A stretch of 64,000 nt of DNA, taken from positions 3,611 through 67,610 of the forward strand of contig JAZDFZ010000049.1 of the NCBI GenBank assembly GCA_043807425.1, written 5' to 3'. The position numbers were made by a program, and so were the translations under genes. This stretch comes from Actinomycetota bacterium. Its GTDB lineage: Bacteria; Actinomycetota; Geothermincolia; Fen-727; Anoxymicrobiaceae. Below the pieces are notes generated by a model. It did no database searches. It saw only the letters and a list, made by a program, of their open reading frames with translations, and had not been told where the DNA came from. Positions 33,456 to 61,013 of this stretch are shown here, piece after piece (the stretch's first letter is position 1; each line of letters begins with the position of its first letter).

Positions 33456-33794
33456 TCAAAGATCGAGTATCGCCCTCACCCAATCCTCGGTTTTTCCGAG
33501 TGTCTCGGGGGAGACCGCTCCGAGACGCCTGATCAGGCGCTTCCGGGAGATACATCTAACCTGCTCGCAGATGACGAAGCTCTTGTGCTTGAGACCGCCT
33601 TCGGGGGGCTGGACCGGGACACGTGCGACGATACCGCGATCGCGTGTTGTAAGGGGTATGGTCACAACCAGCCCGCCAAGGCTCCGGTTCCATTCATCTT
33701 CAGAGACGATCAATACAGGTCTTGCGCCCGCCTGTTCCCTCCCGACCGTAGAGCCCAGATCCGCGAACCACACCTCACCCCTGGAAATAATCAC
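33456..33794 (-). CDS. mazF: type II toxin, PemK/MazF family endoribonuclease
   Basis: RGEVWFADLGSTVGREQAGARPVLIVS...IPLTT...ICEQVRCISRKRL. Confidence 0.9.
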   Translation of the reverse strand: MIISRGEVWFADLGSTVGREQAGARPVLIVSEDEWNRSLGGLVVTIPLTTRDRGIVARVPVQPPEGGLKHKSFVICEQVRCISRKRLIRRLGAVSPETLGKTEDWVRAILDL

Positions 33795-34056
33795 TGAAAT
33801 CCTCTTCCTCCAGCCCGTCCATCAAGGTCGAGTCCCACTCACGGACCTCCCGCTGGTAGTCCTCCCATTCCGCGGGGTTCTCACGCAGGCGTGCGAATGA
33901 ATCGCACAGCTCCTGGATCATCCTCTTCCGCCGGTATTTCTCCACCGCTTCGGCCACGATCTCGATCTGGGAAGCGCCGGTGCTGGCTGCAAGCTCTTCT
34001 ATGGTCTTCTTGGTCCTGCCGGTAACCCTTATCGTCGTGGATCTCTTTTCCGCCAT
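33775..34056 (-). CDS. cognate antitoxin, ribbon-helix-helix type
   Basis: ATG 34056 with a GAGGTGA Shine-Dalgarno. KRSTTIRVTGRTKKTIEELAASTG... 20-nt overlap with the toxin gene. Confidence 0.65.
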   Translation of the reverse strand: MAEKRSTTIRVTGRTKKTIEELAASTGASQIEIVAEAVEKYRRKRMIQELCDSFARLRENPAEWEDYQREVREWDSTLMDGLEEEDFSDYFQG

Positions 34057-34078
34057 CTCGATCACCTCGATTACGTGT

Positions 34079-34114
34079 GTTAACAAATATGTTAACAGAT
34101 TTATTAACAGAATT
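34079..34114 (-). promoter_or_regulatory. three tandem 12-bp GTTAACA repeats, probable mazEF operator/promoter
   Basis: GTTAACAAATAT GTTAACAGATTT ATTAACAGAATT, starting 23 nt upstream of the antitoxin ATG. Strikingly AT-rich. Confidence 0.5.
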
Positions 34115-34145
34115 GCAGTCGCCAACGGGTGGATTTCGTGCCCTG

Positions 34146-36218: not shown

Positions 36219-39200
36219 GTGGCAGGCGGACCTGATCTGCTTCCAGCCCGGGGAATGACCCAGCCTAGAACCCGACGGGGGGGGGCCCTAGCCCACGTCT
36301 GCGCTTCCTTCATCGTCATGTTCGTTTGCACGTCCACGTTCATCACCCCAGCGAGCCTGAACGCGGCTGATAACAACTGGAAGTGGGATTTCGATAATCC
36401 ATCGGACTACTCGTTCAACGCCGATTACATTGATGTCACTGGTGCCACTGCGCGTCTAAAAGCATTCCCGCTCGAGGAAGGATGGTGGCAGGGCTACTCT
36501 CCCGCTCAGAACCCTGACGATCTTGGCATCACCGGAGGATCCAGCCTCACCCTCGACCCAAGCGGAAATGCGATCCTTATCGCCAGCGTCAAGGATGATG
36601 GTGACGATCCGTATGACGCGTGGGTCGAGAAGCGACGCGGGTCCGACGGGGCGATTCTCTGGACATCCCGCGAGGATATCGGCGGCTGGGGCCTAGATAA
36701 CAAATGTCAGGCAGTCATCTGCACAACCGGCGGAAGGGTTATCACCGCGGGATACAGTGAGAAACCCGCCGCCGCCGGTACTGAGCTGTGGATCCGTCGG
36801 CAGGATACCACAGGACTGAACCCCATTACTGTTGAGTTCGACCTGCTGAAGCATGTCCAGTGTGCAAGCCTCACATGCGACAAGGCGGGCAACATCCTTG
36901 CGTGCGGCACCACGGTCGACGACCCGAGCCCCTTCGGCACCGAAAAGATGAAGGCCTGGGTGATGAAGCTCGATTCAAATCTGGTCCAGATCTGGCAGCG
37001 TATCTACGCCTATACGGACCCCGGAGCTGACACGTTCGCCCTCTCGATCTCAGCGGATTCGAGCAACAGCCCGGTTGTCGCAGGCTACGTGGCGTACGGT
37101 AGGCCCTACCCGATCAGCACCGACATCTGGGTGAGGAAATATACTACCGGCGGCGATCCTGTATGGGCTGCTGATACGACCATCAGCGTTGATGCCTTCG
37201 ACATGGCGATCTCCGTCGACTGTTGGGACAGGTCGCCGAGTGGGATGACTTCTGACAATCGGATCTTCGTCGGAGGTCTCACGGGACACATGGATGGTTC
37301 GGACCTCATTGGTGAGGCGTTCTATGCTCGGCTGGACCAGAACGGCACCGTTTCGTGGCAACATACCCACACCTCCGCTGGCTACGAGGAAGGGCGGAGC
37401 TTCGTTGCCGCCGATTACAGAGGAGACCTGTCTGTGGCGGCGCAGCACGAGGACGCCGATAGACTGCTCTTCGGCTGGGTCGCGAAATGCGACGGGCAGG
37501 ACGGCTCTACCCGGTTCGAGAACACCCATGCGCTCTCACCGAGCCCCCGCTCGGCCTACTGGACGGCCTTCAGTGTCTCGGATCCGGCTCAACCCCTGGA
37601 ACTCGAGGACGTCGCTTTCGCTTTCACCGGGTCGTCGATTGAAGGCGAGATAACGGTGAGGAAGTACCCGATGACTAAGTACTCCTCGCTCTCCCCCGCG
37701 ATTTCCACGAGCAAGCGTCCGCTCGATACTAGCGAACAGGCTCCTACCAACTTCTCGATGGCATTCGGGGCCGGCAATCATGGAACGGTACTCTTTCAGC
37801 TTTCCAACAACCTGAGCACCTGGTACTGGCACAACGGGTCGGCCTGGAAGTCCACGAACTGGGCTGGAGGTCCCATTTGGGATGCATGCCAAGCCAACAC
37901 CGTCGCCGAGATTGACACGAACATCTCCACGTTCGACACGGGCACGAACAAGGCCCTTTACGTCAGAGTGTTCCTGAGGGGTGATGGAGATCAGCAGGTC
38001 GTCCTGGACTGGATATCCTGCGACAGTAGGCCCGCGGAGGAGTGCCACACATGGTACTTCGCCGATGGCTCAACCGCCTGGGGCTTTGACGAGTACGTAG
38101 CGGTCATGAACCCGAACAAACGTCCGGCCCTTGTCGAGATCACTTACATGCTTCCCAATGGCGATTCGGACAACCTGCTTGCCCGCGAGACCGCAGCTCC
38201 GTGGCTGTACCCTGACAAGAAGCTATGGGTGGATCCCTATTCCAGGGCAACTGTCCATGTGGACCACTTGTTAGATGATGTCGATCTGTCACTCAGACTG
38301 GAAGCCAGAGGCGAGGACGAGCAGCACGTAGGCGTGGTCGCCGAACGAACCTTGATTAAGACCGTGGGAGGTGTGCCGCTTCAATGCGGCTCAGTAGGCG
38401 CTGGCACGACCCGTCCTTCCAACACCTGGTATTTCGCGGAGGGGACGATCCGCGACGGCTTCGAGACCTACTTCTGCATCCAGAACCCGGAAACCACCAA
38501 TGCGAATGTGACTCTGGACTTCATGAAGGGAGATGGGGGCTCGGTCAGCTATACACTTGATGTTCCTGCCAATTCAAGAAAGACGGTGAATGCTAGGACT
38601 GACGTATCACTCTCACCGGGTTCCGAGGTCGCCAGGGACTTCTCATGCGAGGTGAGCTCCACCTCCGGCATCATCGTCGAGCGCTCCATGTCGGCAAACG
38701 ACTGGCAGGCCTTCGACGGCACTCTCGGCACAACTGCCCCGGCTACGACCTGGCACTTCGCTGAGGGTTGCACGAACTATGGTTTTGAGACCTTTCTGTT
38801 AGTGCAGAATCCAGGCGACGCCGAAGCAGCCGGCATAGCAACCTTCTTCTGGAGCGAACCTGATCCCAATGATCCTTGCGCTCCCAGGGTGCCCAAGGAG
38901 TATGCTCAGCCTTTCTTGGTAGCACCTAGAAGTAGGGTGACCATTGTACCAGCTCAATTCATCGGCCCTCAGGAATTCTCCTCGAGGTTGGATTTGAGCC
39001 TTCCCGTGGTCTGCGAGCGCTCCATGTACTGGAACTCGAGGCGCGGACTCCACGCCGCCAGCGGGATCGCGCAGGCGAGACCCTACGTCTACTTCGCTGA
39101 AGGTTCCACTGCCAAGATGAACGGCTTCGAAGAGTACCTCTGCATCCAGAACCCGAACGGCGTAGACATAAAGGTCACAATCACAGCCCTGACCCCGTGC

Positions 39201-39458
39201 GGCCCGGGCGGGTTTCTCGAGTTCACGGTTAGAAAGAACACGAGAACCACCATCGATATTTTCAATGTCGTCAAGGACAAGGAGAACTCGCTGGAGGTCT
39301 ACTGCTCCGATGTAGTCGCCTACGAGTTCATCGCCGAGAGGTCGCTCTACTGGCGGGACGAGACCGGGGCCAAACGGGGTGGAGGAGTGACAACGGGTTA
39401 CCGGTCGCTCCCACGGATCGGAGACATGCCGGAACTGTCATGGAAACCACCGAAATGA
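36219..39458 (+). CDS. secreted giant protein 1: signal peptide, beta-propeller-like repeats, middle domain, four WxFAEG/xNP/ER-MY modules
   Basis: 1079 aa. Hydrophobic N-terminus ALAHVCASFIVMFVCTSTFITPASLNA. Recurring A/GGY...W motifs (VITAGYS, PVVAGYV, IFVGGLTG). Modules begin at residues ~611, 735, 843 and 956. Start could be ATG 36255. Confidence 0.8.
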   Translation: MAGGPDLLPARGMTQPRTRRGGALAHVCASFIVMFVCTSTFITPASLNAADNNWKWDFDNPSDYSFNADYIDVTGATARLKAFPLEEGWWQGYSPAQNPDDLGITGGSSLTLDPSGNAILIASVKDDGDDPYDAWVEKRRGSDGAILWTSREDIGGWGLDNKCQAVICTTGGRVITAGYSEKPAAAGTELWIRRQDTTGLNPITVEFDLLKHVQCASLTCDKAGNILACGTTVDDPSPFGTEKMKAWVMKLDSNLVQIWQRIYAYTDPGADTFALSISADSSNSPVVAGYVAYGRPYPISTDIWVRKYTTGGDPVWAADTTISVDAFDMAISVDCWDRSPSGMTSDNRIFVGGLTGHMDGSDLIGEAFYARLDQNGTVSWQHTHTSAGYEEGRSFVAADYRGDLSVAAQHEDADRLLFGWVAKCDGQDGSTRFENTHALSPSPRSAYWTAFSVSDPAQPLELEDVAFAFTGSSIEGEITVRKYPMTKYSSLSPAISTSKRPLDTSEQAPTNFSMAFGAGNHGTVLFQLSNNLSTWYWHNGSAWKSTNWAGGPIWDACQANTVAEIDTNISTFDTGTNKALYVRVFLRGDGDQQVVLDWISCDSRPAEECHTWYFADGSTAWGFDEYVAVMNPNKRPALVEITYMLPNGDSDNLLARETAAPWLYPDKKLWVDPYSRATVHVDHLLDDVDLSLRLEARGEDEQHVGVVAERTLIKTVGGVPLQCGSVGAGTTRPSNTWYFAEGTIRDGFETYFCIQNPETTNANVTLDFMKGDGGSVSYTLDVPANSRKTVNARTDVSLSPGSEVARDFSCEVSSTSGIIVERSMSANDWQAFDGTLGTTAPATTWHFAEGCTNYGFETFLLVQNPGDAEAAGIATFFWSEPDPNDPCAPRVPKEYAQPFLVAPRSRVTIVPAQFIGPQEFSSRLDLSLPVVCERSMYWNSRRGLHAASGIAQARPYVYFAEGSTAKMNGFEEYLCIQNPNGVDIKVTITALTPCGPGGFLEFTVRKNTRTTIDIFNVVKDKENSLEVYCSDVVAYEFIAERSLYWRDETGAKRGGGVTTGYRSLPRIGDMPELSWKPPK
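38049..39400 (+). repeat. four tandem coding modules in protein 1
   Basis: TWYFADG..VMNP..VAERTL; TWYFAEG..IQNP..IVERSM; TWHFAEG..VQNP..VCERSMYW; YVYFAEG..IQNP..IAERSLYW. Confidence 0.85.
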
Positions 39459-42316
39459 TCAGGGGCGCCTCAGGCGATTATCGCGGACGCCGCTCGTCTA
39501 AACTAGCGGTCGTCCCGGCGGTCCTGCTGGCGGCTCTGTTGCTCATTCCTGCCGGTCAAGTAGGGGGAGCCGACGCAGGGGTCGATGCGAATACGAAGAT
39601 CCTGGGCATACAAGTGCACTCGTCGAACTCTCCTACCTGGAAGGAAGGTGGTGCCACAAAGTACCAGTTCAGTCCTGTGCCCGAGGTATACCAAAGCAAG
39701 TTTGAAGGTGTGTGTGTATACGTCCCGTGGTATGAATTCGAGATCGGTGAGGGTCTATACAACATCGACAAGTACAAGCAGATCTTCGAGGATATCAAGG
39801 CCGCGGGAATTAAGCATGTAAAGGTGTGCTTCTGTCATTTCCTACCGGGTCATGTTCGCAATGCAATCCATAGGAGGTTCGAGAAAGGTGAACGTACGTA
39901 TACAGGCGACTATGCTGAAGCATGGGAGCCATGGGTCGCTTCCTGGGCAAACAGAGATCCTGACAATGCAAGCGGGTTAACGTCGATGCATGATTTCACA
40001 AACTGGTGGTCCACTCAGTTATTCACGGGCACTGGCTCTGACTTCAAGCAGATGAGGACCGCAGGAGATGCCTTCTATGGCTTTGCTGTCAATCTTGCGA
40101 TCCCTGAGTACAAGGCCATGGTCCGCGAGTTTGCCCGGAACTTCCGCCAGTATGTCGATGTCTGGGAACCATGGGATGAGCCGGGGTGGGGACTTAACAC
40201 ATGCGCTTCGGGAGTCAATATCTACTCGGATTCGGGCTCCATAAACTGGCCTAGAAAAGGATCTAATCTCTCGATAACACGCTTCTCCGGCTGGCCCACA
40301 CAGATGACCATCAAGGATTCCTGGGGCGAGAGAATAGTCCCGAGTGACTACGAGAAGGTCCACCTCGCATGCTACGAGGCCCTTGAGACCGCTTACAGTG
40401 GGAGCGGAAAGGAGCCTTACCTACTGACCTCATCCCTGGTCGGCGGGAACTCTTTGCTGGATAAGCCGTATACGGAATTCAATGGGAACCTGGTCGGATA
40501 CAACTGCAATGACACCACGCCATACACCACCCTTGCCGAGAGGGACGTCTCTGTGGTGGTCCGGTCGGACAGAGAGGTGATCTCCGAGCGACCTGTGTAC
40601 TTCAACTACAACGGATGGTGTCCGGGCGGCCACGTGACGGCGGGCACAACCTCTCCATCCAAGGACTGGTACTTCGCCGAAGGCAACACGCTTTCCAACT
40701 TCGACGAGTACATCACCGTATACAATCCCAGCTCCACCAAGGCCTCCCTGGCTCTCGACTACATGATCGAGGGTATCGGGCTGGTTCAGAGAGCAGAAAC
40801 GGTCAACGCTTACTCCAGGGCGACCTTCCGTGCAAAGGAGCATCTCAAGGACAACGCGGCTTATCTCGGGGGCAATGTCAGCTTGCACCTGCGCTCGAGT
40901 ACGCCCGTACTGGCCGAAAGACCGATGTACTTCGACTACTACGGTATCACCGGCGGGGACTGCGCCGTTGGAGCCAAGACCATCTCCAGTACTTCCTTCT
41001 TCGCCGAGGGCACCACCATGCCCGGCTTCGACGAATGGCTGTGCCTGCAGAACCCCAACGCGGAGGATATGGTCATAAATGCCACTTATATGATGGAAAA
41101 CCGAGATCCGGTATACCAGGAATACCTGGTACCACAGCACCAGCGGTACACCATCAAGGTCAATGATGTAGTAGGCCCATACGCTAACGTATCGGTTGCC
41201 CTCTCCTCCGACAAAGGCTTCGTTGCCGAGCGCCCCATGTACTTCCGGGCTTTCAGACCCGATGTCACCTACTCGGGAGGCCATGACATCGTCGGAGCTC
41301 CCTCTCCCAAGAAGACCTGGCACTTCGCCGAGGGCACCACTCGCAAGAACGAGGTAGATGGCTTCTTCGAGGAATGGCTCTGCCTGCAGAATCCCAATCC
41401 TGAAGAGGTAACGGTCAATGCAACCTATATGCTTGCGGGCAAGGAACCGATATTTGCGAGCTATCAGGTCCCGCCAAGCCAGAGGCTCACCATAGAGGTA
41501 AGCAACCCCGAGTTTATCGAGCAGGGAAACGACGTGTCGGTGTTGCTCTCGTGCGAATCCCCGTTCGTCGCCGAACGTCCCATGTACTTCAATGTCTCCG
41601 GTAAGACCCCCCCGAACGTATTCAATGGTGGCAGCGTTAGCATGGGAGGAGAGCCCAGCACCAAGACTTACTTCGCGGAGGGAAGGGTGTCGCCGGTGTT
41701 CGATGAGTGGATAACGATCGTGAATCCAAATGACGAAGAAGCCAAGGTCCATATTGATACCTACTACAGCACCATTAAAGGAAAGACCGCACACGTCAAG
41801 ATCCCCCCGAAGCAGAGATACACGCTTCTGCTCAACAAACTCCCTCCCGGTGCTTACGCATGGACGGACGCGGTATCTCTCCACCTGTTCGACATGCCTT
41901 CTCTCTGGCCCGGCATCTACCAGGGACTGAAGGACGAACTCCACAAGCGATTCATCGACAAAGAACTCGCGGTCTCTTCCTGCGGGTGGGGACACGGGAA
42001 ATCCGTCATGAGCGTCGAGGATGAGAATTACTACTACAACCCGGTTGAGGAAGGCGCGGAGGCTGAATATCCGCATTCCAGAGACGGACAGGCAAGGGCG
42101 GTACGTGACTGGATCAGGGCCTTGTTCGACCAGGGATGCAACAAGGTCTGGTTCTTCCAAGACATCGACCCCCGGAAGACAGAGGACAGATTCTTCGGGC
42201 TGTTCATGTACACAACACACGCCCCACTCACGGAATCCGCGATAGAGCCGACTGATGCGTGGTGGGAGTACGTGAAGTTGCAGGAGTGGTTGAAATCATC
42301 TGGGGGATCGGAATAA
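39455..42316 (+). CDS. secreted giant protein 2: signal/anchor, glycoside-hydrolase-like barrel halves flanking four modules
   Basis: ATG 39455 overlaps the protein-1 stop (ATGA). KLAVVPAVLLAALLLIPAG anchor. YVPWYEFEIGEGLYN..., VDVWEPWDEPGW, then the module array, then ...KVWFFQDID...FFGLFMY. Confidence 0.8.
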   Translation: MIRGASGDYRGRRSSKLAVVPAVLLAALLLIPAGQVGGADAGVDANTKILGIQVHSSNSPTWKEGGATKYQFSPVPEVYQSKFEGVCVYVPWYEFEIGEGLYNIDKYKQIFEDIKAAGIKHVKVCFCHFLPGHVRNAIHRRFEKGERTYTGDYAEAWEPWVASWANRDPDNASGLTSMHDFTNWWSTQLFTGTGSDFKQMRTAGDAFYGFAVNLAIPEYKAMVREFARNFRQYVDVWEPWDEPGWGLNTCASGVNIYSDSGSINWPRKGSNLSITRFSGWPTQMTIKDSWGERIVPSDYEKVHLACYEALETAYSGSGKEPYLLTSSLVGGNSLLDKPYTEFNGNLVGYNCNDTTPYTTLAERDVSVVVRSDREVISERPVYFNYNGWCPGGHVTAGTTSPSKDWYFAEGNTLSNFDEYITVYNPSSTKASLALDYMIEGIGLVQRAETVNAYSRATFRAKEHLKDNAAYLGGNVSLHLRSSTPVLAERPMYFDYYGITGGDCAVGAKTISSTSFFAEGTTMPGFDEWLCLQNPNAEDMVINATYMMENRDPVYQEYLVPQHQRYTIKVNDVVGPYANVSVALSSDKGFVAERPMYFRAFRPDVTYSGGHDIVGAPSPKKTWHFAEGTTRKNEVDGFFEEWLCLQNPNPEEVTVNATYMLAGKEPIFASYQVPPSQRLTIEVSNPEFIEQGNDVSVLLSCESPFVAERPMYFNVSGKTPPNVFNGGSVSMGGEPSTKTYFAEGRVSPVFDEWITIVNPNDEEAKVHIDTYYSTIKGKTAHVKIPPKQRYTLLLNKLPPGAYAWTDAVSLHLFDMPSLWPGIYQGLKDELHKRFIDKELAVSSCGWGHGKSVMSVEDENYYYNPVEEGAEAEYPHSRDGQARAVRDWIRALFDQGCNKVWFFQDIDPRKTEDRFFGLFMYTTHAPLTESAIEPTDAWWEYVKLQEWLKSSGGSE
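40502..41900 (+). repeat. one half-module plus four tandem coding modules in protein 2
   Basis: ...ISERPVYF; DWYFAEG..VYNP..LAERPMYF; TSFFAEG..LQNP..VAERPMYF; TWHFAEG..LQNP..VAERPMYF; KTYFAEG..IVNP.. (divergent end). Confidence 0.85.
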
Positions 42317-45048
42317 TGGACATGAATAAGATGCTCAAAGCGTCGGCAGTGGCCGTCATTGCCATCATCGCGGTGTGTTCAGCTATGAAGTGTTCAACCG
42401 ATTCACTGGCAGAACCTGTTGTTGAGTGGCCAGAAGGTGTCGTTAGAGTAAGCCAGCAACCTGCTGTCTCATTACTGAACATCCACGATGGTCTGGGTGG
42501 GGTCATTGTCTTGTTCAGAGACGAGGGCGATATCAACAAGTACTACATCAAGCGCGTTTGCTCGGACGGCACCTCGCTAGCGGGTTGGGGCGGTGGGCTT
42601 GAATGCCCCAAGACAAATCGCTTGGTTCCAGATGGAAGCGGGGGGGTTTGGCTTCTATACCTGGAGGATAGCTCGGAGCGTTTCCGACTCACTCTGTTGA
42701 GGCATTATTTCGGGGACGGGTCCGTTGATAGCGAAGTACAGGAAGGGAAGTCACTTATAGATCTGCCAACAGCCAACTTCCCAACGGTGCTCCTCGTAGA
42801 TGAATTCGGTGGTGTCTATTTCGCGTGGACTGATTGGCACATGGACAGCCCTCACTACCAGACTATCTACTGCGTACGCTACGATAAATATTTCAACGTA
42901 ACGCCAGGCTGGAACCCTGCAGGGAATCTCGTGGGAGTGATTGCTACACCGGGTGGTGAAACGTTCCTCAATCAAATACGTGGCGATGGCAGTGGCGGAG
43001 TATTCCTGGTATGGAATGAGAAGCCCGCTGATGGACCATATCGGTTGACAAGGGTTGATTCAAATGGAAGTCACCACCCTGGTTATTCTACCTTCGGCAA
43101 GCCGCTTGAGGGCACGCTCAGTTGGCGAAAGGACGAGTGGGGGGAAGAGCAACGCGGCTCTATTCTACTCACTGCGGAAGTGGATGAGGAGGGGGGAGTC
43201 TATTTCGTATGGTCAGAGGAATGCGCCGAGAGCTTCGTCGATTACGATCATGCTGTTTTCGCAGGCAAACGGGACTCTGATGGGAAACTGTTGTGGCAGT
43301 GCCTGATGGGATGCTATCACACGGAGGGAACGAGTCCATGGTTGATTCCCGACTGCTATGGTGGCGCATACGCGTTTGCTGAAGAGAGATGGCAGGAATA
43401 TGGCAGCAATGCTACTAAGGATCATGCCGGCCATTTCGAGAGGAATGGACGTCTTTCCAGTGGCTGGCCTCGAGAGCTGCCATTCACTATCCCTGAGTTC
43501 AACATCCCGGCAAGCGGACTGAATGGGTGGCCTGTATACCCGGACCTGGAAGGTGGCTTCTATGCTATCGGAGGAGAAAAGTGGCTGAGATTCGACAAGA
43601 GCGGGGCGGAGCATACCGGCTGGCCACAGGCCGGTGCGCCTGTTGGGATGTACGTCAACTACTTCTGGAATGTACCGCCCCGGGTGAGCCCCCGGTCGTT
43701 CATAGCACTTCAGGATGCCGGTGCTGGGAGTTGTCTCTATGTCTTCAAATTCACCGACCGCCTGGAGCCCCCGAACTTCGATACCTACATCCTGGTGGAG
43801 AACCCGAGCGACCAGGAGGCCGAGGTGTTCTTCAGCCTGATGCTGGAGGACGGAACCTACCGCAAGATAATGAAGGTGGTCCCCGCCCGCTCCCGGCAGA
43901 CCGTGAAGGTCAACGACTACACCCCCTACAAGGCCGTATCCACCAAGGTCGAATCCAGCGTTCCCGTGATAGCCGAGCGCGCCATGTACTTCGACTACCT
44001 GGGCTTCTTCAAGGGAGGGCACGACTGCTCCGGGCTGCCCGCCCCGGGTAAGACCTGGTACCTGGCAGAGGGGTACACCGCCGAGGGCTTCGACACCTAC
44101 TTGTTACTTCAGAATCCCGGGGAGACCGAGGCCTCTGCTAAAGTCACCTACATGCTGCCGGGCTCCAAGACGCAAGGGGAGACCTACTCCGTGCCCGCCC
44201 ACTCCAGGAAGACGGTGTCTGTGGACTCCATCCCCGGCCTTGAGGCCACCGAGCTCTCCATGAGGGTGGACTCTAACGTCGATATCGTGGCCGAGCGTGC
44301 CATGTATTTCGAGTACTACGGCAAGGTGGGAGGACACGTGCAGGCCGGGGTATCATCGCCCTCCGATACCTGGCAGTTCGCCGAGGGCTACACCGCCGAA
44401 GGCTTCGACTCCTACGTCCTGCTGCAGAACCCGGGAGACTCCCCCGCGCACGTCTCCCTCACCTTCATGGAGCCCGACGGCAACACGACCGGGGAGACCA
44501 GAACGATAGAAGCCCATTCCAGGGACACCGTAAAAGTGGACGACATAGGGGGCCTCTCCTCCTCTGAGTTCTCCACCTCCATAACCTCGGACGAACCCAT
44601 TATCTGCGAGAGAGCGATGTACTTCGACTACACGGGGGGCATCGACGGGGGACACGACGCGGTCGGGGCTTCCGCCACCTCTACAACCTGGCACCTCGCC
44701 GAGGGCTACACGGCGGGGGAGTTCGACACCTTCGTGCTGCTCTCCAACCCTTCCGACCAGACTGCGCACGTACGGGCAACCTTCTACAGGTCACAGGGGA
44801 CGCCGGTCACCCAGGAGTTCTCCATGGCAGCCGGAACGCGCCATACCATCGAGACCGACAAGATCCCCGGCCTCGAGGCCGCCGAGTTCTCGACCCTCAT
44901 CGAAAGCACCAACGGCATCGGGGTAGTAGCGGAGCGGGCCGTCTATTTCTCATACGGCTCGGAAGGGTGGCGAGACGGACACGCTGCCCTCGGAGTCACG
45001 GCTCCCTCGACAGACTGGTACTTCGCGGAGGGGTACACGGGGCTATAG
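42316..45048 (+). CDS. secreted giant protein 3: signal peptide, eight-fold DxxGG repeat region, four modules
   Basis: ATG 42316 overlaps the protein-2 stop (TAATG). MDMNKMLKASAVAVIAIIAVCSA signal. Eight D-x-x-G-G-h-aromatic units, then four modules. Ends ...TDWYFAEGYTGL. Confidence 0.8.
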   Translation: MDMNKMLKASAVAVIAIIAVCSAMKCSTDSLAEPVVEWPEGVVRVSQQPAVSLLNIHDGLGGVIVLFRDEGDINKYYIKRVCSDGTSLAGWGGGLECPKTNRLVPDGSGGVWLLYLEDSSERFRLTLLRHYFGDGSVDSEVQEGKSLIDLPTANFPTVLLVDEFGGVYFAWTDWHMDSPHYQTIYCVRYDKYFNVTPGWNPAGNLVGVIATPGGETFLNQIRGDGSGGVFLVWNEKPADGPYRLTRVDSNGSHHPGYSTFGKPLEGTLSWRKDEWGEEQRGSILLTAEVDEEGGVYFVWSEECAESFVDYDHAVFAGKRDSDGKLLWQCLMGCYHTEGTSPWLIPDCYGGAYAFAEERWQEYGSNATKDHAGHFERNGRLSSGWPRELPFTIPEFNIPASGLNGWPVYPDLEGGFYAIGGEKWLRFDKSGAEHTGWPQAGAPVGMYVNYFWNVPPRVSPRSFIALQDAGAGSCLYVFKFTDRLEPPNFDTYILVENPSDQEAEVFFSLMLEDGTYRKIMKVVPARSRQTVKVNDYTPYKAVSTKVESSVPVIAERAMYFDYLGFFKGGHDCSGLPAPGKTWYLAEGYTAEGFDTYLLLQNPGETEASAKVTYMLPGSKTQGETYSVPAHSRKTVSVDSIPGLEATELSMRVDSNVDIVAERAMYFEYYGKVGGHVQAGVSSPSDTWQFAEGYTAEGFDSYVLLQNPGDSPAHVSLTFMEPDGNTTGETRTIEAHSRDTVKVDDIGGLSSSEFSTSITSDEPIICERAMYFDYTGGIDGGHDAVGASATSTTWHLAEGYTAGEFDTFVLLSNPSDQTAHVRATFYRSQGTPVTQEFSMAAGTRHTIETDKIPGLEAAEFSTLIESTNGIGVVAERAVYFSYGSEGWRDGHAALGVTAPSTDWYFAEGYTGL
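43741..45045 (+). repeat. four tandem coding modules in protein 3 (register shifted by one strand)
   Basis: NFDTYILVENP..IAERAMYF..TWYLAEGYT; GFDTYLLLQNP..VAERAMYF..TWQFAEGYT; GFDSYVLLQNP..ICERAMYF..TWHLAEGYT; EFDTFVLLSNP..VAERAVYF..DWYFAEGYT. Confidence 0.85.
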
Positions 45049-45599: not shown

Positions 45600-46370
45600 T
45601 TGCCCGTAGCGGGCGTCGACATAGGCAGCCTGACCGCAAAGGCGGTCGTGCTGCAGGACGGCGAGGTGCTGTCCACCAGCCTCACCCAGACCGGCCACAA
45701 CAGCCGCGTCGCGGGACGGCGTGCCCTGGACATGGCGCTGGACCGCCTGGGACTGGACGAGGGCTCGCTCGGCCTCATCGTCGCCACAGGGTATGGGCGG
45801 ACCGCGGCCGACTTCGCTGGTGAGCGCATCACCGAGATCACCTGCCACGCGCGCGGCGCCAACCGCACCCACCCCGAGGCGCGCACCGTCATCGACCTGG
45901 GCGGACAGGACTCCAAGGCCATCGCCATCGACGACAGGGGCAAGGTGCTCGACTTCGTGATGAACGACAAGTGCTCTGCGGGGACCGGCCGCTTCCTGGA
46001 GGTCATGGCCTCCGCGCTGGAGGTCGAGCTGGACGACCTGGGAGGCCTGTCGCTGGAGTCCTCCTCACCGGCTTCCATCAGCAGCGTCTGCACGGTTTTC
46101 GCCGAGAGCGAAGTGGTCAGCCGGGTGGCCGAGGGAGCGTCGAAGGTCGACATCATCGCCGGCATCCACCAGGCGATAGCCTCCCGCATCTACGCCATGG
46201 CGGCAAGGATCCCCACCAACGAGGCACTGATCATCACCGGTGGGGTCGCCAGGAACATCGGTGTGGTCCGGGCGCTCGAGGAGAAGTTCGGCGTCGGGAT
46301 CGTGGTCCCGGAGATGCCGCAGCACATGGGAGCCCTCGGCGCGGCTATAATCGCCTCAGAACACGGATGA
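45600..46370 (+). CDS. acyl-CoA dehydratase activase (BcrAD/BadFG/HgdC-type ATPase)
   Basis: TTG start after GGGGGTGA. AGVDIGSLTAKAVVL...IDLGGQDSKAI...NDKCSAGTGRFLEVMA. Confidence 0.85.
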   Translation: MPVAGVDIGSLTAKAVVLQDGEVLSTSLTQTGHNSRVAGRRALDMALDRLGLDEGSLGLIVATGYGRTAADFAGERITEITCHARGANRTHPEARTVIDLGGQDSKAIAIDDRGKVLDFVMNDKCSAGTGRFLEVMASALEVELDDLGGLSLESSSPASISSVCTVFAESEVVSRVAEGASKVDIIAGIHQAIASRIYAMAARIPTNEALIITGGVARNIGVVRALEEKFGVGIVVPEMPQHMGALGAAIIASEHG

Positions 46371-46401
46371 CTCAAATAGGGGTCAGGCACGATTCGATTC
46401 A
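46368..46401. repeat. GTCAGGC-core element overlapping the activase stop codon
   Basis: TGACTCAAATA-GGGGTCAGGCAC-GATTCGATTCA (arms match 8/11). Begins with the TGA stop at 46368-46370. Confidence 0.7.
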
Positions 46402-46417
46402 CTTTGTGGGGTGAGAG

Positions 46418-47536
46418 ATGTCAACAGCGCTCGCGAGACTGATGGAGCTGAGGAACGACCCGTACGCGCGCGCTCGTGCCTGGAAGGAGCGCACGGGAGG
46501 CAGGGTGGTGGGGTTCTTCTGCTGCTACGCGCCCGAGGAGTTGATCTACGCGGCCGGCGCGCTCCCGGTGCGGATCACGGGCGAGAACCGTACCGTGTCG
46601 AAAGCGGGCGCGCACCTGCAGAGCTACTGCTGCTCGCTGGCACGCACGGGGCTGGACATGGCGCTGACCGGAGACCTCGCGCTCCTTGACGGGACGGTGT
46701 TCGTCCATACCTGTGACACCATGCAGCGCCTCAGCGATATCTGGAGGCTGAATGCCGGGTACGCCTTCCACGTGGACTTCGTGCTCCCCGTGCGATTCGA
46801 GGGGAAGCTCGCGACCGAGTACACCCGGGCCGAGCTCGGTTTGGTACGGAGCAAGCTGGCCAACGCCCTGGGGCAGTTCGATGACGACACCATAAGGGAG
46901 AGCATAGGGGTCTACAACAGGAACCGCGCCCTGCTGGGCGAGCTGTACGACCTGCGCAGGGAAGATCCCGGCATAATGCCGTGCGACCAGGCGGTCTGGA
47001 TCGTCGCATCCGCTGCGCTCATGGACAAGGCTGAGCACAACGAGATCCTCGAGGAGATACTGGTGGACCTGCGGGGGGCATCGAGCGGGCCGGAGAAGAC
47101 CCGGTTGTTCGGGGTCGGCTCGGTCATGGACCAGTGGGAGTTCCTCCGCATGATGGAGGACCTGGGAGGAACATTCGCCGACGACGACTTCTGTACCGGG
47201 CACCGTTACTTCGAAGGGGACGTGTCCGAGGAGGGCGACCCGCTGGACGCGCTGACGGCGAGGCTCATGGAACGCGGCCAGTGTGCCTGCAAGCATACAC
47301 CCGACCGGGAGCGCCCGGCGCGGATCGTACAGCGTGCCCGCGCGTGCGGTGCCAGGGGCGCCATCTTCTTCCAGTTCAAGTTCTGCGAGCCGCACGGGTT
47401 CGACTACCCGTTCATCAAGACCGCCCTCGACGACGCGGGATTCTCGACACTCGAGCTGGAGTTCGAGCAGGGGTCGGTCTCCATCGAGCAGCTCCGCACC
47501 CGGGTGGAAGCACTCCTCGAGACGGTATCGGCTTGA
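46418..47536 (+). CDS. 2-hydroxyacyl-CoA dehydratase / benzoyl-CoA reductase family subunit
   Basis: 372 aa. VVGFFCCYAPEELIYAAGALPVRI...VHTCDTMQ...FFQFKFCEPHGFDYP. Confidence 0.8.
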   Translation: MSTALARLMELRNDPYARARAWKERTGGRVVGFFCCYAPEELIYAAGALPVRITGENRTVSKAGAHLQSYCCSLARTGLDMALTGDLALLDGTVFVHTCDTMQRLSDIWRLNAGYAFHVDFVLPVRFEGKLATEYTRAELGLVRSKLANALGQFDDDTIRESIGVYNRNRALLGELYDLRREDPGIMPCDQAVWIVASAALMDKAEHNEILEEILVDLRGASSGPEKTRLFGVGSVMDQWEFLRMMEDLGGTFADDDFCTGHRYFEGDVSEEGDPLDALTARLMERGQCACKHTPDRERPARIVQRARACGARGAIFFQFKFCEPHGFDYPFIKTALDDAGFSTLELEFEQGSVSIEQLRTRVEALLETVSA

Positions 47537-47537
47537 G

Positions 47538-47556
47538 CCCGGGCTCTCAGCCCGGG
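47538..47556 (+). other. intercistronic hairpin between the two dehydratase subunit genes
   Basis: CCCGGGCT-CTC-AGCCCGGG, an 8-bp perfect stem starting 2 nt after the stop. Confidence 0.4.
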
Positions 47557-47587
47557 ATGAAGCGTGGCAGCACAAGGGGGTAATGAC

Positions 47588-48805
47588 TTGGCCGACGAGA
47601 GGATCAAGAGCCCGAAGATACAGGCCACCGAGCAGATGAAGCAGCTCATCACCGAGTACTACATCGACGCCAAGACCACGAAGCTCCCCGAGGGCTCACA
47701 CAAGCCCATCTGCTGGATAACCTCGGGCGGGCCGGTGGAGTTCCTTATCGCGGCAGACGTAATTCCCATCTACCCGGAGAACCACGGTGCGATGTGCGGC
47801 GCGGCCAAGATCGCGCCGGGCCTTGCCGAGGTGGCCGAGAAGATGGGTTTCAGCCGCGACCTCTGTTCGTACGCGCGGGCCGACATCGGTGGGGCGCTTA
47901 CCGAGAGCGGCGCAATACCCGGGGGCCTGCCTAAGCCGGACTTCCTGCTGTGCTGCAACAACATCTGCGGGACGGTGGTCAAATGGTACGAGGAGCTGGC
48001 GCGCATCTTCGACGTCCCCATGTTCCTGTTCGACACCCCCTTCATCCACGTGGAGAAGCCCGAGCACGCCACCGAGTACGTCCGACAGCAGTGCCTGGAG
48101 CTGGTGGAGTTCCTGAGCGAGCGGACCGGCAACGAGTTCAGCCTCGAGCGGTTCGCGGAGGTGGCGATGCTCTCGGTCGAGGCGGTCGACCTCTGGAAGG
48201 GGGTCCTCGCGACCGCGGAGAGCAGGCCCAGCCCGTTCACCTGCTTCGACGCCTTCATCCACATGGCCCCGATCGTCACCCTGCGGGGGACGCAGAAGGT
48301 GGTCGACTACTACAAGCTGCTCAAGAAGGAGATGGAGGACCGCGTGGCGCAGGGCGTCGGGGCTGTGCAAGACGAGAGGTACCGCCTCATCTGGGACAAC
48401 ATCCCCATATGGTACGAGATGCGCAACCTGGGCAACCTCTTCGCCGAGAACGGGGCCTGCCTGGTCGCCGACACCTACACCACGGCCTGGGCAGTGGACA
48501 TAAAGATCGAGGACCCGCTGACCAGCATGGCCGACGCCTACACCAAGGTCTACCTCAACATCTCCATCGACATCATGCTCGAGCAGCTGGTGGAGCTCAT
48601 GGAGAGGTACGAGGCGGACGGGCTGGTCATGCACTCCAACCGGTCCTGCAAGCCGTACTCGCTGGGGCAGTACGACCTGTCCCGGGCCGTAGCCGAGCGC
48701 ACGGGCAAGCCGTCACTCATAATCGAGGCGGACATGACCGACTCGCGCGTCTACTCAGAGGCACAGACCCGCGAGCGCGTGGAGGCGTTCATCGAGAGCC
48801 TGTAG
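47588..48805 (+). CDS. 2-hydroxyacyl-CoA dehydratase / benzoyl-CoA reductase family subunit
   Basis: ICWITSGGPVEFLIAADVIPIYPENHGAMCGA...LCSYAR...CCNNICGTVVKWY...MHSNRSCKPY. TTG 47588 follows AAGGGGG. The track start 47564 is an alternative. Confidence 0.8.
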   Translation: MADERIKSPKIQATEQMKQLITEYYIDAKTTKLPEGSHKPICWITSGGPVEFLIAADVIPIYPENHGAMCGAAKIAPGLAEVAEKMGFSRDLCSYARADIGGALTESGAIPGGLPKPDFLLCCNNICGTVVKWYEELARIFDVPMFLFDTPFIHVEKPEHATEYVRQQCLELVEFLSERTGNEFSLERFAEVAMLSVEAVDLWKGVLATAESRPSPFTCFDAFIHMAPIVTLRGTQKVVDYYKLLKKEMEDRVAQGVGAVQDERYRLIWDNIPIWYEMRNLGNLFAENGACLVADTYTTAWAVDIKIEDPLTSMADAYTKVYLNISIDIMLEQLVELMERYEADGLVMHSNRSCKPYSLGQYDLSRAVAERTGKPSLIIEADMTDSRVYSEAQTRERVEAFIESL

Positions 48806-51302: not shown

Positions 51303-53738
51303 CTACCGGCGGTGGATGGTGAAGCTCTTGCCCGCGCTCTTGCCCCCGGCCGTCTGGACTTTCACCTGCACGGTCCCCTGGACGCCGGACGGCACCTGTA
51401 CCACGACCTGGTTGTTCGACCATGACCTGTAGCGCGTCGCCCGCTGGCTACCGAAGTAGACCTTCGTGACGCCTGAGCTCCAGCCTCCGAACCCCTGCCC
51501 GTTGACGGTCAACCACGTGCCCGGGTATCCCCAGCTCCGGCTCAGGGTGCTTATCTGCGGGATAACGCTGAACGCGACCCCGCCGGAGGTCCCTCCCCCC
51601 GTGGTGACGGTCACTTGCGGACGGCCACCGACCCCCGACGGCACCTTCACCCTCAACGAGGTGCTGCTCCAGGCGAGGTAATCGGAGGATGCACACGCCC
51701 GGGAACCGAACCTCACGACCGATGAGCCGCGCGACGCGCCGAACCCCGAGCCTAGAATGGTGACGGCCGACCCCCTCGTCCCCGAGGACGGGCTCAACCC
51801 GCTGATCGAGGGAGCCTGTTGGGTCGAGCCGTAGCTGAAGCCCAGCAGGTAATCGTCGGTAGTGGAGAAACCGTCGTAGGGATAGACGTGCAGGTAGTAC
51901 CTGGCCGCATCCGGGTAGTGGAACTCTATCAGCTCATCCAGGTTGGACTCGTTTATGGAGGAGGCGACCTGCTGACCGTACTGATCGTAGACGTAGAGAT
52001 CGTAGTCGCAGCCGGCGGGTACGCTCAACAGCTCCACTGCGATGACGTCCGTGCCGGATGGGACGTCCGTATAGTAATAGTCGTCGTCGTACGCGGCTGC
52101 CACGTGCGACGAGTAATATGAGTCCGGCTGAAGGGGCCCGTAGGCCTCGGCGATTCCGTCGTTTGGCTCGAAGTCCTCGCCTGGCGGCCCGGTCACGGTG
52201 AACCCCCCGGACAGCGTCCCGGAGGACGCGTCGGGGTTGGTCACCACCACATCCCAGGCACCCTCGGCCGCACCCGCGAGATTCACGGTGCAGTCGATCC
52301 TGGTCGAGCCGGTCGGAGCCTCCCCCGTGGCCTCGATGTCCGGCGATCCGCTCCGCGATAGTCGGACCTGGCTGCCCGACACGAACCCGGACCCGCTCAC
52401 CGCGACGTCGAGCAGGGTGATATTGATCCCCTGGTTGGGGTCGATACCCGTCACACCGGGCCCGGACGGGGGTGCGCCCCCGACCGTGAAGTTGACCCCG
52501 TTGCTGGCCGCGCCGTCCCAGTCGTACACCACGACCGGGCCGCTTGTCGCACCCGAAGGTACGGTGGCGGTCACCCTGGCGTTGGTGAAGCCGACCTGGT
52601 TCGCCGCCGTCCCGTTGAAGGTCACTCGCGCGGAGCGCCTCAAGGCCCCGAAGTTGTTGCCGTTGACCTGGACGCTGGTGCCCACGCTGCCCGAGCCCGG
52701 GTTCAGGCTGCTGATCGAAGGCCCGTCCCCGGAGAGGTCGCCCATGGACCAGGCCTCCCAGACGTACCTCTTCGCGAAGTCGTAGCTCAGGTAGACGAAC
52801 CCGTGGTTGGTCCCGTTCCAGTTGTACCCCCAGGAGTTGACCATCTTGAAGCCGCCCCTGTGGTCGGCGTCCGACCCGCCGGGGTTCGCATTGTCGTCAT
52901 ACCCCACTATGCATACGCCGTGCCCCCCGGCGATACCCGAGGACCCGTTGTAGTCGTAGTACGCCTTGGCCGGGTTGCCGCCGTAGTTGGGGAAGTCGTT
53001 GTAGATGGGGATCCCCATGACCAGCATCTTCCCCTGGTCCAGCCACGCCTTCGCGTTGGCGATGTTGTTGGGATTGGTGAACGGGCCGTAGGTGCTCTGG
53101 TTCCAGAACGCGCTCCACCCCGAGGGGATCCTGTAAGGCCTGGCGGCCTCGTTCTGGGCGGAGGTCGGCTGCCTGGTGTAGTTGGAGTCGGTGTACGCGA
53201 ACTCTGCGATGTCCACGGCGCCCTTGTTCTGCAGCAGCGAGAAGGCGTCCGGGAAGTTGGCACCGCCGTCCTGGCCGCCGTTGATCTGGTTGTAGGTCCA
53301 CGACGGGCTGAACTGGTAGTTGGCGTTGGCGAGGTTCCAGCCGGTGTGCTCCTGCTTCTCCGACCAGGTCTTGTAGTAGTAGGTTGAGGACCAGCCAACA
53401 CACGACCCCTGACTTCCCTGGTCGCCGATCGGCGGGAGCTGGCTCGAGAGGTCCACCGCCGCGGGCAGGTCCTCGCCGGCCTCGAGCTTGGGGGCCAGCT
53501 CGGCCTGCGGGTAGTCGGCCTCAGGGGCCAGCTTGAACCCCAGGTGGTGCTCCCCGTCACCCTCGACCAACTGATCGTCGGCCAGGAAAGAGCGCACGTC
53601 GTCCGCCGCGGCCAGTGGCGCGACCAGCGCCGGTAGAGTCAGTGCAAAGAGAAGAATGATTAGTGCGATAGCAAGCAGACGTCGTGGCCCGCCACCCTCA
53701 GGCCGACCGATTGACCGGATACCGTTTCGTGCTTCCAT
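51303..53738 (-). CDS. secreted papain-like (C1) cysteine peptidase with IPT/TIG-like domains and a pre-peptidase C-terminal-type domain
   Basis: QGSQGSCVGWS (Cys), GGHGVCIVGYDD (His), VNSWG. Four units of the type ISSLNPGSGSVGTSVQVNGNNFG. EPNDGIAEAYGPL...YYLHVYPY. ATG 53738 after AAGGGGG. Confidence 0.8.
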   Translation of the reverse strand: MEARNGIRSIGRPEGGGPRRLLAIALIILLFALTLPALVAPLAAADDVRSFLADDQLVEGDGEHHLGFKLAPEADYPQAELAPKLEAGEDLPAAVDLSSQLPPIGDQGSQGSCVGWSSTYYYKTWSEKQEHTGWNLANANYQFSPSWTYNQINGGQDGGANFPDAFSLLQNKGAVDIAEFAYTDSNYTRQPTSAQNEAARPYRIPSGWSAFWNQSTYGPFTNPNNIANAKAWLDQGKMLVMGIPIYNDFPNYGGNPAKAYYDYNGSSGIAGGHGVCIVGYDDNANPGGSDADHRGGFKMVNSWGYNWNGTNHGFVYLSYDFAKRYVWEAWSMGDLSGDGPSISSLNPGSGSVGTSVQVNGNNFGALRRSARVTFNGTAANQVGFTNARVTATVPSGATSGPVVVYDWDGAASNGVNFTVGGAPPSGPGVTGIDPNQGINITLLDVAVSGSGFVSGSQVRLSRSGSPDIEATGEAPTGSTRIDCTVNLAGAAEGAWDVVVTNPDASSGTLSGGFTVTGPPGEDFEPNDGIAEAYGPLQPDSYYSSHVAAAYDDDYYYTDVPSGTDVIAVELLSVPAGCDYDLYVYDQYGQQVASSINESNLDELIEFHYPDAARYYLHVYPYDGFSTTDDYLLGFSYGSTQQAPSISGLSPSSGTRGSAVTILGSGFGASRGSSVVRFGSRACASSDYLAWSSTSLRVKVPSGVGGRPQVTVTTGGGTSGGVAFSVIPQISTLSRSWGYPGTWLTVNGQGFGGWSSGVTKVYFGSQRATRYRSWSNNQVVVQVPSGVQGTVQVKVQTAGGKSAGKSFTIHRR

Positions 53739-53875
53739 GCCTACCCCCTTCAGGCAGTAGAGGAGTGCTGGCGCGTCGTAAGAAGCGCCCGGCCCCTCTG
53801 TCAATCAATCGTAGGGTTAGACGAGGGACTTGATGCGGGGTTCCTACAGGGTCGATAAATAGCCCAATGGTATGA

Positions 53876-59682: not shown

Positions 59683-60053
59683 GAGAGCCCCCTTTATCGT
59701 CAGCGATCACTATATACCCCGCATTCTTCACATGAAACAGGAAGGATTATGGAGCCCTCTCAAACGCGCCGGAGTGGTCGGAATCGAGCTAGAATATCGG
59801 CGTTGGGAGCGGTAGATGAGGAATATCGGTACGGATAATCGTTTTGGCAGTTCCGGTTGGGTTGGCATGGGCCTTCTTGAAGCTTTATAACTCTGAGGAC
59901 AGACATATGAGAAACGCGCTCCGAAAAGACGAGCGTTTCTTGGAAAGGAAGGTAGGACAGGAGCGGTCCCAGAGGATAATCGAAGGAGTAAAGAAGCGAA
60001 ATGAGATCCGGATGAGCTCGAAGCTCGAATCCGGATCAAAGGGAGTGAAGGAC

Positions 60054-60788: not shown

Positions 60789-61013
60789 AGCCGAAAGGCT
60801 TCTTTCGCAGTTGCTGGTATTACACTCGGAGGTAACCTCGTTCGCCGATACCGTCTTCCTGGAGTTCGGGGGAACCGCGATATCCTGGGCCGCGGTGGTC
60901 CCGTCTCCTCTCATGGAGGTGATGCTGACCTGCGCCTCTCCGGTGTCGGAGGGATTCCCCACGCACAGCCACGTCTCGAAGCCGGGGCGGGTGGTCCCTT
61001 CCGAGGGGACCCC
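60789..61013 (-). pseudogene. isolated, decayed copy of the WxFAEG/xNP/ER module
   Basis: Within minus ORF 60693-61082: GVPSEGTTRPGFETWLCVGNPSDTGEAQVSITSMRGDGTTAAQDIAVPPNSRKTVSANEV...NCERSLS. Aligns with protein-1 module 2 but lacks W-Y-F-A and ~15 residues before the ER motif. No signal peptide. Confidence 0.45.

Follow-up and report, generated by a model that had tools for sequence, protein, structure and literature searches.

The 64,000-nucleotide stretch of DNA analyzed here (the window; contig JAZDFZ010000049.1 of GenBank assembly GCA_043807425.1, from a member of the Anoxymicrobiaceae in the phylum Actinomycetota) carries a candidate operon of three plus-strand genes at positions 36219-45048, and each product (proteins 1, 2, and 3) contains four copies of one module. 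A first-pass annotation made from the sequence alone had left this module unnamed. We found that it is the ASRAH domain of the ASRT superfamily (Pfam DUF5719 and ASRT), which already has a name. The four-module unit (tetrad) is laid out in canonical order in protein 1, appears to be circularly permuted as a whole in proteins 2 and 3, and in protein 2 is inserted into a predicted PslG-like barrel whose catalytic nucleophile is absent. Tetrad-level circular permutation and insertion into such a barrel appear to be new. With moderate confidence, we favor a reading in which the genes encode exported proteins that carry variable heads on a constant, wall- or glycan-binding ASRAH ring.

The ASRAH domain was named by De Souza, Iyer, and Aravind in 2009 (Biol Direct 4:25; PMC2739507), who defined it by an N-terminal Trp strand and a (near-)invariant Asn at the end of strand 2. 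That study described ASRAH dyads in an actinobacterial lipoprotein (now DUF5719) and tetrads in secreted Chloroflexi amidases, so that both the domain and its occurrence in fours were known before. The DUF5719 label is likewise already in GenBank, where the last 466 of the 910 amino acids of protein 3 are deposited as "MAG: DUF5719 family protein [Actinomycetota bacterium]" (MFH1150196.1, P0021 in our library), a public gene call that is too short. Pfam DUF5719 (PF18986) scored 39, 26.2, and 74.9 bits in proteins 1, 2, and 3, respectively, against a cut-off of 26.2, which puts protein 2 exactly at the threshold and the other two above it; the match in the protein 1 tetrad had an E value of 6.9e-10. 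Pfam ASRT matched the full modules of protein 2 above its gathering score (33.3 bits versus a cut-off of 25; E value, 5.2e-8). A profile of the 12 modules matched the PDB entries 1NC7 (Thermotoga TM1070; E value, 7.2e-6) and 2II7 (the Anabaena sensory rhodopsin transducer; E value, 7.8e-6) over profile positions 2-83, which is nearly the full module.

Structure prediction gave the same identity. An AlphaFold model of protein 3 residues 470-910, built with a 58-sequence alignment, had a predicted local distance difference test score (pLDDT) of 92.7 and a predicted TM score (pTM) of 0.91. Its top Foldseek match was TM1070 (1NC7; TM[target], 0.82-0.83; 1.4-2.5 Å; probability, 1.0), and it also matched the ASRT structures 2II7-9 (TM, 0.6-0.83; probability, 1.0). 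No solved PDB chain covered the whole tetrad in the Foldseek search (query TM, at most 0.23). The predicted fold of the module is the eight-stranded beta-sandwich of the TM1070/ASRT type. The first-pass annotation had anticipated a novel or only remotely Ig-like fold, and the Foldseek and profile matches to ASRT and TM1070 rule this out.

Motif counting returned four copies each of the F[DE]..NP core, the strand-A motif, and the ER strand in every protein. The 12 WxFAEG strands counted earlier therefore stand as strand-A motifs, four per protein, but the Trp is present in only 9 of 12 copies, with V, S, or T at that position in the other three (VYFAEG in protein 1, SFFAEG and TYFAEG in protein 2). 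The Asn ending strand 2 is found in 12/12 modules, and F, N, P, R, T, and S columns are invariant across the alignment of all 12. Conserved residues of the module are the AEG Glu, the NP Asn, the SRxT Arg, and the ER pair (Glu-Arg), which is invariant in three of four modules. Like standalone ASRT (2II7-2II9) and TM1070 (1NC7), the modules combine a modelled eight-stranded beta-sandwich with an N-terminal Trp strand, (A/P)(E/D)G in strand 1, and an invariant Asn ending strand 2, and there are four domains per assembly. The cytoplasmic ASRT and TM1070 have a single domain each and associate noncovalently into homotetramers, whereas each secreted chain here contains four diverged copies. In the profile alignment, where ASRT has the signature SHEshChhN, whose His and Cys contact the ligand, the secreted modules have F[DE]x[YW]hhhxNP, so that Asp/Glu and a hydrophobic residue occupy the positions of the two ligand residues. 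The secreted modules also add an ER-x-M-Y-F strand and a GGHD linker strand, unlike ASRT and TM1070.

We then compared the layout of the modules in the three proteins by using hmmsearch and an independent hidden Markov model (HMM) built from 150 modules of other proteins, with the window sequences left out. This HMM recovered four module equivalents per protein, in agreement with the 4+4+4 structure proposed in the first-pass annotation. In protein 1, four full modules (residues 609-717, 734-832, 843-943, and 956-1050; E values, 1e-20 to 1e-29) form a tetrad in canonical order at 38043..39368 (+). In protein 2, a leading fragment (residues 359-388; 40529..40618, +) matches HMM positions 64-93 (alternatively 65-92), corresponding to the last hairpin, strands 7-8, with the ER strand. 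Three full modules follow (residues 402-498, 511-601, and 620-718; 40658..41608, +), and then a trailing fragment (residues 735-811; 41657..41887, +) that matches HMM positions 2-62 (alternatively 1-74) and comprises strands 1 to ~6 with no ER strand. Protein 2 therefore has an ER strand at residue 377, ahead of its first module, and none after the fourth core; AlphaFold predicted residues 364-385 to be a strand hairpin with pLDDT 70-88. The protein 3 tetrad (43762..44964, +) begins with a module lacking strand A (residues 483-565; HMM positions 14-91), continues with three full modules (residues 579-671, 683-776, and 789-883), and is followed by a 12-residue C-terminal strand matching HMM positions 1-12, the orphan strand A STDWYFAEGYTGL (residues 898-910; 45007..45045, +). 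The shift in register reported earlier for protein 3 is thus real, but the analogous shift in protein 2 had been overlooked. Cross-protein BLAST produced several diagonals ~105-110 amino acids apart, and self-BLAST of the proteins gave no off-diagonal high-scoring segment pairs.

The partial modules form complementary pairs: HMM positions 64-93 and 2-62 in protein 2 and positions 14-91 and 1-12 in protein 3. Both kinds of permutation recur in many homologues, which we refer to as type B (like protein 3) and type C (like protein 2); type C tetrads were always embedded in a larger protein. Across 257 homologues, a first module without strand A was accompanied by a C-terminal orphan W[YF]FAEG strand in 35/37 cases. 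When the first module had its strand A, an orphan strand was found in 2/209 cases, and the other 207 proteins ended without a trailing strand. In protein 3, 27-29 residues separate the ER strand from the next Trp at each of the four junctions, the last one included, and the orphan is modelled as a strand (model residues 429-434; pLDDT, 95-98). From the sequence and the model, we infer that the whole tetrad of protein 3 has been circularly permuted and that its C-terminal strand fills the missing place in the first module. The first-pass annotation had assigned this strand to the preceding domain. That assignment is unlikely, because 207/209 canonical homologues manage without a trailing strand and the 35/37 versus 2/209 association favors the first module. 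Two further points speak against it: in standalone TM1070 and ASRT, the domain opens with its own Trp strand, and TM1070 superposes on one contiguous 109- to 113-column stretch of the tetrad model.

The recurrence of both permutation types in homologues argues for a closed four-domain ring. The four domains pack compactly in the model, and we infer a ring topology that can be opened at different points. For protein 2, the best reading of the sequence is that the ring opens within a module, near HMM position 63. Opened there, both chain ends would leave at the same place, as insertion into a host loop requires. Neither tetrad-level circular permutation nor insertion into another domain is described in PMC2739507, and a literature search found no DUF5719 paper and no further relevant ASRAH paper.

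The host domain of protein 2 is split by its tetrad into an N-terminal part with predicted strands 1-6 of a PslG-like clan GH-A barrel (residues 46-355; 39590..40519, +) and a C-terminal part (residues 812-953; 41888..42313, +). The tetrad enters directly after the HPY motif, a position that we take, from general knowledge of clan GH-A, to be the strand-6 (beta6) loop on the catalytic face of the barrel. After removal of the tetrad, the host retrieved a family of ~800-amino-acid proteins carrying the same insertion, and jackhmmer tied it to the type C host family. A host profile made from six type C hosts (A4) was aligned with the protein 2 host by hhalign at a probability of 99% (E value, 6e-18). 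The same profile matched PslG, the glycosidase of the Pseudomonas aeruginosa Psl exopolysaccharide (glycoside hydrolase family 39 [GH39]; 4ZN2/5BX9), with an E value of 1.1e-8 over ~275 columns, followed by GH39, GH42, and GH10 enzymes. The alignment spans the acid/base (WNEP) and nucleophile (TEWGW) regions of PslG, which like protein 2 is secreted.

The ~800-amino-acid host relatives keep the motifs Y-[YF]-E-x-W-[NQ]-E-P-G-W-D and [ST]-E-I-G-W-P. In protein 2, the acid/base motif reads WEPWDEPGW (40163-40189, +); the acid/base Glu is retained within WDEPGW and the Asn is changed to Asp, giving DEP for the NEP of PslG. In place of the nucleophile motif [ST]EIGWP, the alignments put AVSSCGWGH (41969-41995, +), so that S-S-C-G-W has Ser at the Glu position, a change common to two related loci described below (L004 and L005). 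The His of the HPY motif is also gone. Further differences from PslG are the tetrad after barrel strand 6 and large extra loops. Protein 2 was rejected as an active PslG-type retaining hydrolase because the nucleophile is absent. We found one uninterrupted host homologue (locus L074, 19871-21034, +), which has canonical ILNEPGW and VTEIGWP motifs and lacks a tetrad. The C-terminal third of this homologue reads as an out-of-frame translation, as does that of the neighboring type C gene (L074 3629-6160), which suggests frameshifts or assembly errors in these genes.

The heads of the other two proteins differ from this barrel and from each other. The protein 1 head (residues 49-605; 36363..38033, +) gave weak SBBP beta-propeller repeat matches (Pfam SBBP E value, 0.015; NCBIfam SBBP lipoprotein E value, 3.9e-5, far below its cut-off), followed by a beta-rich region; a search for PDB sequence matches returned nothing meaningful. 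It is putatively a propeller plus a beta-rich region. The protein 3 head (residues 50-470; 42463..43725, +) had no Pfam match and no meaningful PDB sequence match. It contains seven [DE]xxGGx[YFW] repeats, 48-66 amino acids apart, that begin at residues 58, 106, 162, 224, 290, 346, and 410, and its BLAST matches to library proteins P0003-P0010 fall in multiple registers. This pattern suggests a seven-bladed beta-propeller.

All three genes read as intact over 2.7-3.2 kb with every module motif kept. Gene 1 occupies 36219..39458 (+) and encodes 1,079 amino acids if read from GTG 36219; ATG 36255 (Met13) is the more likely start, because a typical signal peptide comes right after it (MTQPRTRRGG..., then a hydrophobic stretch, and then SLNA|AD). 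The library copy of protein 1 (P0064) begins at Met34 (nucleotide 36318), within the hydrophobic signal segment. Gene 2 (39455..42316, +) encodes 953 amino acids from ATG 39455 or 958 from ATG 39440. The latter start looks equally good: it has GGAGA 15 nucleotides upstream and would overlap the protein 1 coding region by 19 nucleotides. Gene 3 (42316..45048, +) encodes 910 amino acids from ATG 42316, which is preceded at 8-13 nucleotides by a GGGGGA Shine-Dalgarno-like run; a longer form of the open reading frame (ORF) runs from 42259 to 45048 (929 amino acids). The first-pass annotation had called these proteins giant, which is overstated for 0.9-1.1 thousand amino acids. It was right about the junctions. 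The start of gene 2 overlaps the stop of gene 1 in ATGA (39455-39458), and the start of gene 3 overlaps the stop of gene 2 in TAATG (42314-42318). This arrangement of abutting genes on one strand fits the cotranscription that it suggested; a promoter and terminator scan returned only background levels. Each protein has, as the earlier reading held, a single N-terminal hydrophobic segment, and a hydropathy check found no other hydrophobic 19-mer in any of them, so that all three products look secreted. Inspection of the N-terminal sequences revealed no [LVI][ASTVI][GAS]C lipobox in proteins 1-3.

The tetrads of this operon belong to a large family. A word-indexed search with a single-module profile returned only fragments of ≤200 amino acids, and one with whole protein 3 returned 10 matches, most of them to the head; the tetrad profile was used instead of the single-module profile. 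An exhaustive profile search of the family found 7,802 cluster representatives at an E value of ≤1e-3 and 3,452 at ≤1e-30. Exactly four full modules are present in 116 of the best 150 representatives and eight in another 5, and 26 of the other 29 combine three or seven full modules with one or two partial ones. Proteins with eight modules (two tetrads) include one encoded at L035 9698-15781 and several top representatives (P0012, P0013, and P0015). An unusual architecture was seen in P0303 (806 amino acids), where five full modules stand between a trailing-hairpin fragment and a C-terminal orphan strand. A scan of species-representative genomes found more than 543 loci, several per genome, almost all of them in Actinomycetota metagenome-assembled genomes (MAGs) assigned to Candidatus Solincola, Geothermincola, Anoxymicrobiaceae, and unnamed lineages. 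The loci closest to the window operon were of the Geothermincolia type. Tandem arrays of two to six tetrad genes were present in 36/83 fetched loci.

The synteny of the operon is partly conserved. In two related MAG loci (L004, 1229-11350, and L005, 1306-16777), three consecutive tetrad genes encode a NosD-type beta-helix plus Big_6 head (with TIG in addition in L004), a PslG-like barrel into which a tetrad is inserted, and a third head. The middle gene has the protein 2 host domain in both. The last gene of L005 has a protein 3-type head, and that of L004 was matched through its tetrad only. The triplet synteny raised as a possibility by the first-pass annotation thus holds for a protein 2-like and protein 3-like gene pair in the same positions, but the first gene carries the beta-helix in place of the protein 1 head. 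L005 encodes an additional head composed of malectin, GH116/GH52-like, and FlgD_ig domains. Elsewhere in the family, tetrads are fused to L,D-transpeptidase (YkuD), Amidase_3, SpoIID, NlpC/P60 with SLH, M23, M99, and M28 domains and also to PGA_cap, CAP, cohesin, and TIG domains; partners that are peptidoglycan enzymes or glycosidases are frequent. Near other members, P0002 comes after polysaccharide deacetylase and DUF4015 genes, and DUF2229 and weak HGD-D (2-hydroxyacyl-coenzyme A [CoA] dehydratase D-component) matches flank the tetrad gene in L001.

Two described groups come closest to these proteins. The Chloroflexi amidase-associated tetrads (family 2 of PMC2739507) are likewise secreted, have exactly four tandem ASRAH domains, and were predicted to form a tetramer-like assembly. 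Amidase_3-fused homologues (P0322, P0363, P0367, and P0382) are ~40% identical to the protein 3 tetrad, and P0322 at least has the same missing-first-strand permutation. Unlike the Chloroflexi family, proteins 1-3 have no Pfam match to Amidase_3, and their heads are putative propellers and a PslG-like barrel. The second group is the DUF5719 lipoprotein, with which the three proteins have in common the Pfam model match, the actinomycetotal origin, and secretion. As described in PMC2739507, that family combines two domains with conserved N- and C-terminal extensions and a lipobox Cys, in a neighborhood of WhiB, glycosyltransferase, and zincin genes; proteins 1-3 instead have four domains and lack a convincing lipobox, and their neighbors are unrelated. 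We therefore rejected membership in the orthologue group of the DUF5719 dyad lipoprotein, as neither architecture nor gene neighborhood fits.

In the mechanism that we favor, the three genes would give Sec-exported surface or extracellular proteins of an anaerobic member of the Actinomycetota, each with a different head on the same constant unit. The four domains of that unit would pack as a compact single-chain pseudotetramer that mimics the standalone ASRT/TM1070 homotetramer. Such a closed ring could be opened in the canonical way (protein 1), so as to end in the first strand of the first module (protein 3), or inside a module with the ends emerging together, permitting insertion into the beta6 loop of a glycosidase barrel (protein 2). 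The ring would bind a carbohydrate of the producer's own envelope (peptidoglycan, an associated glycopolymer, or an exopolysaccharide) and would hold or target the variable heads there, and the operon, judging from fusion partners and neighbors, may serve as a small set for handling glycans at the surface. PMC2739507 predicted that ASRAH domains assemble in a tetramer-like way and bind sugars, with a cleft on one sheet as the site for a small molecule or sugar. The homologue fusions, the PslG-like host of protein 2, the beta-helix and malectin plus GH116-like heads of the syntenic operons, the genes that precede P0002, and the charged residues conserved in each module all count toward a glycan or wall role. 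Because the same module sits on heads with very different substrates, it is most simply a device with a constant ligand.

Several observations weigh against this reading. The literature search brought up neither binding nor expression data on secreted ASRAH tetrads. Some homologues also carry SLH, so the tetrad need not be the wall anchor there. The flanks of the operon encode unrelated metabolism (a thiamine pyrophosphate [TPP] enzyme, a flavin adenine dinucleotide [FAD] oxidase, PanE, NifU, and HGD-D proteins) and lend no functional support. For the ring topology and for the pairing of module 1 with the orphan strand, the evidence consists of pTM, pLDDT, and sequence complementarity. An AlphaFold model of whole protein 2, made with a 4-sequence alignment, had a pLDDT of 57.6 with most of the host below 50, and it reproduced only an alternating strand/helix pattern. 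Finally, protein 2 probably cannot act as a canonical retaining glycosidase, since the nucleophile Glu is absent.

A more far-reaching form of the favored proposal, which we put forward tentatively and with much less confidence, is that the closed ring is a major unrecognized wall or glycan anchor of deep-branching anaerobic Actinomycetota, with a role like that of SLH, LysM, or CWB2. Permutation would then allow attachment at either end or grafting into an enzyme loop, and protein 2 and its relatives would be glycan-binding rather than glycan-cutting PslG-like pseudoglycosidases.

The main rival is that the tetrad is a carbohydrate-binding module that targets foreign or environmental polysaccharides as substrates, which would make the operon a set for nutrient acquisition by glycan degradation. 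The glycosidase-type heads here and in the syntenic operons (PslG-like barrel, NosD beta-helix, and malectin plus GH116-like) speak for such a set, and De Souza et al. (PMC2739507) argued for sugar binding in general. The same module is found, however, on amidases, L,D-transpeptidases, SpoIID, NlpC/P60, M23, and CAP proteins, whose substrates differ, and the conserved Glu (AEG), Asn (NP), Arg (SRxT), and Glu-Arg (ER) are simpler to explain by a constant ligand on the cell's own surface. Given also the missing nucleophile of protein 2, we regard nutrient acquisition as unlikely, though it deserves more weight than the remaining alternatives.

Alternatively, the tetrad might be a protein scaffold or oligomerization ring with no sugar ligand, serving to build a surface lattice or to join the three gene products. 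The fold is not restricted to sugars: the standalone ASRT tetramer was reported to interact with a protein partner (PMC2739507) and, according to the title of PMC8660804, with DNA. The compact, confident tetrad model and the frequency of tandem gene arrays would also suit a scaffold. We nevertheless consider this improbable, as the fusion partners and neighbors are overwhelmingly carbohydrate- or peptidoglycan-active, nothing points to self-assembly, and a repeated ligand site accounts at least equally well for the charged residues conserved in all modules.

The base composition of the operon bears on its history. Its GC content is 0.574 and its GC content at third codon positions (GC3) is ~0.70, versus 0.644 and ~0.87 in the rest of the window. 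In most other loci, tetrad genes show no such contrast with their flanks; low GC was accordingly rejected as a general property of tetrad genes, and because most of them match their flanks, the composition hints at lateral acquisition of the operon. Outside the operon, an isolated ASRAH module remnant lies at 60810..61001 (-) within a short ORF (HMM positions 8-69, EGTTRPGFETWLCVGNPSD...NSRKTV; hmmsearch E value, 1e-17). The ORF flanks are not module-like, and the remnant sits in a second low-GC patch (60-62 kb; GC, 0.58); it is probably a decayed paralogue of a tetrad gene. That the three ORFs are a recently acquired, poorly expressed, or decaying island without current function, as the low GC and GC3, this remnant, and the loss of the nucleophile Glu and the HPY His from protein 2 could suggest, is very improbable given three intact ORFs with all module motifs kept, an SC replacement in protein 2 that is common to L004 and L005 and so suggests a conserved variant rather than decay, and a good Shine-Dalgarno sequence at the gene 3 start.

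The remaining genes of the window include those for the TPP enzyme, the FAD oxidase, MazF, PanE, MBL, NifU, BcrAD, and HGD-D proteins. A BcrAD/BadFG-type activase gene followed by two HGD-D genes (45600-48805, +) indicates an anaerobic lifestyle. A PemK/MazF-type toxin gene lies at 33456-33794 (-; E value, 8e-24), overlapped by a small upstream ORF (33775-34125) that has no Pfam match and presumably encodes the antitoxin. An 833-amino-acid protein encoded at 51303-53804 (-), with three IPT/TIG domains, a PPC pre-peptidase C-terminal domain, and no ASRAH modules, is probably extracellular. Adjoining the ASRAH remnant is a class I S-adenosylmethionine (SAM)-methyltransferase gene (59844-60707, +) with an atypically low GC3 of 0.53.

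The permutation and the barrel insertion are new architectures of a known domain arrangement and as such are of moderate structural and evolutionary interest. Recurrent complementary permutations provide sequence-level evidence for a closed four-domain ring, and the permuted tetrads offer a natural example of a multidomain ring reopened for insertion into another fold. They belong to a family whose secreted members number in the thousands in uncultured anaerobic Actinomycetota and Chloroflexi; many of these members are fused to peptidoglycan enzymes. If the ring is indeed a wall-anchoring module, recognizing it would aid in reading the surface proteomes of these lineages.

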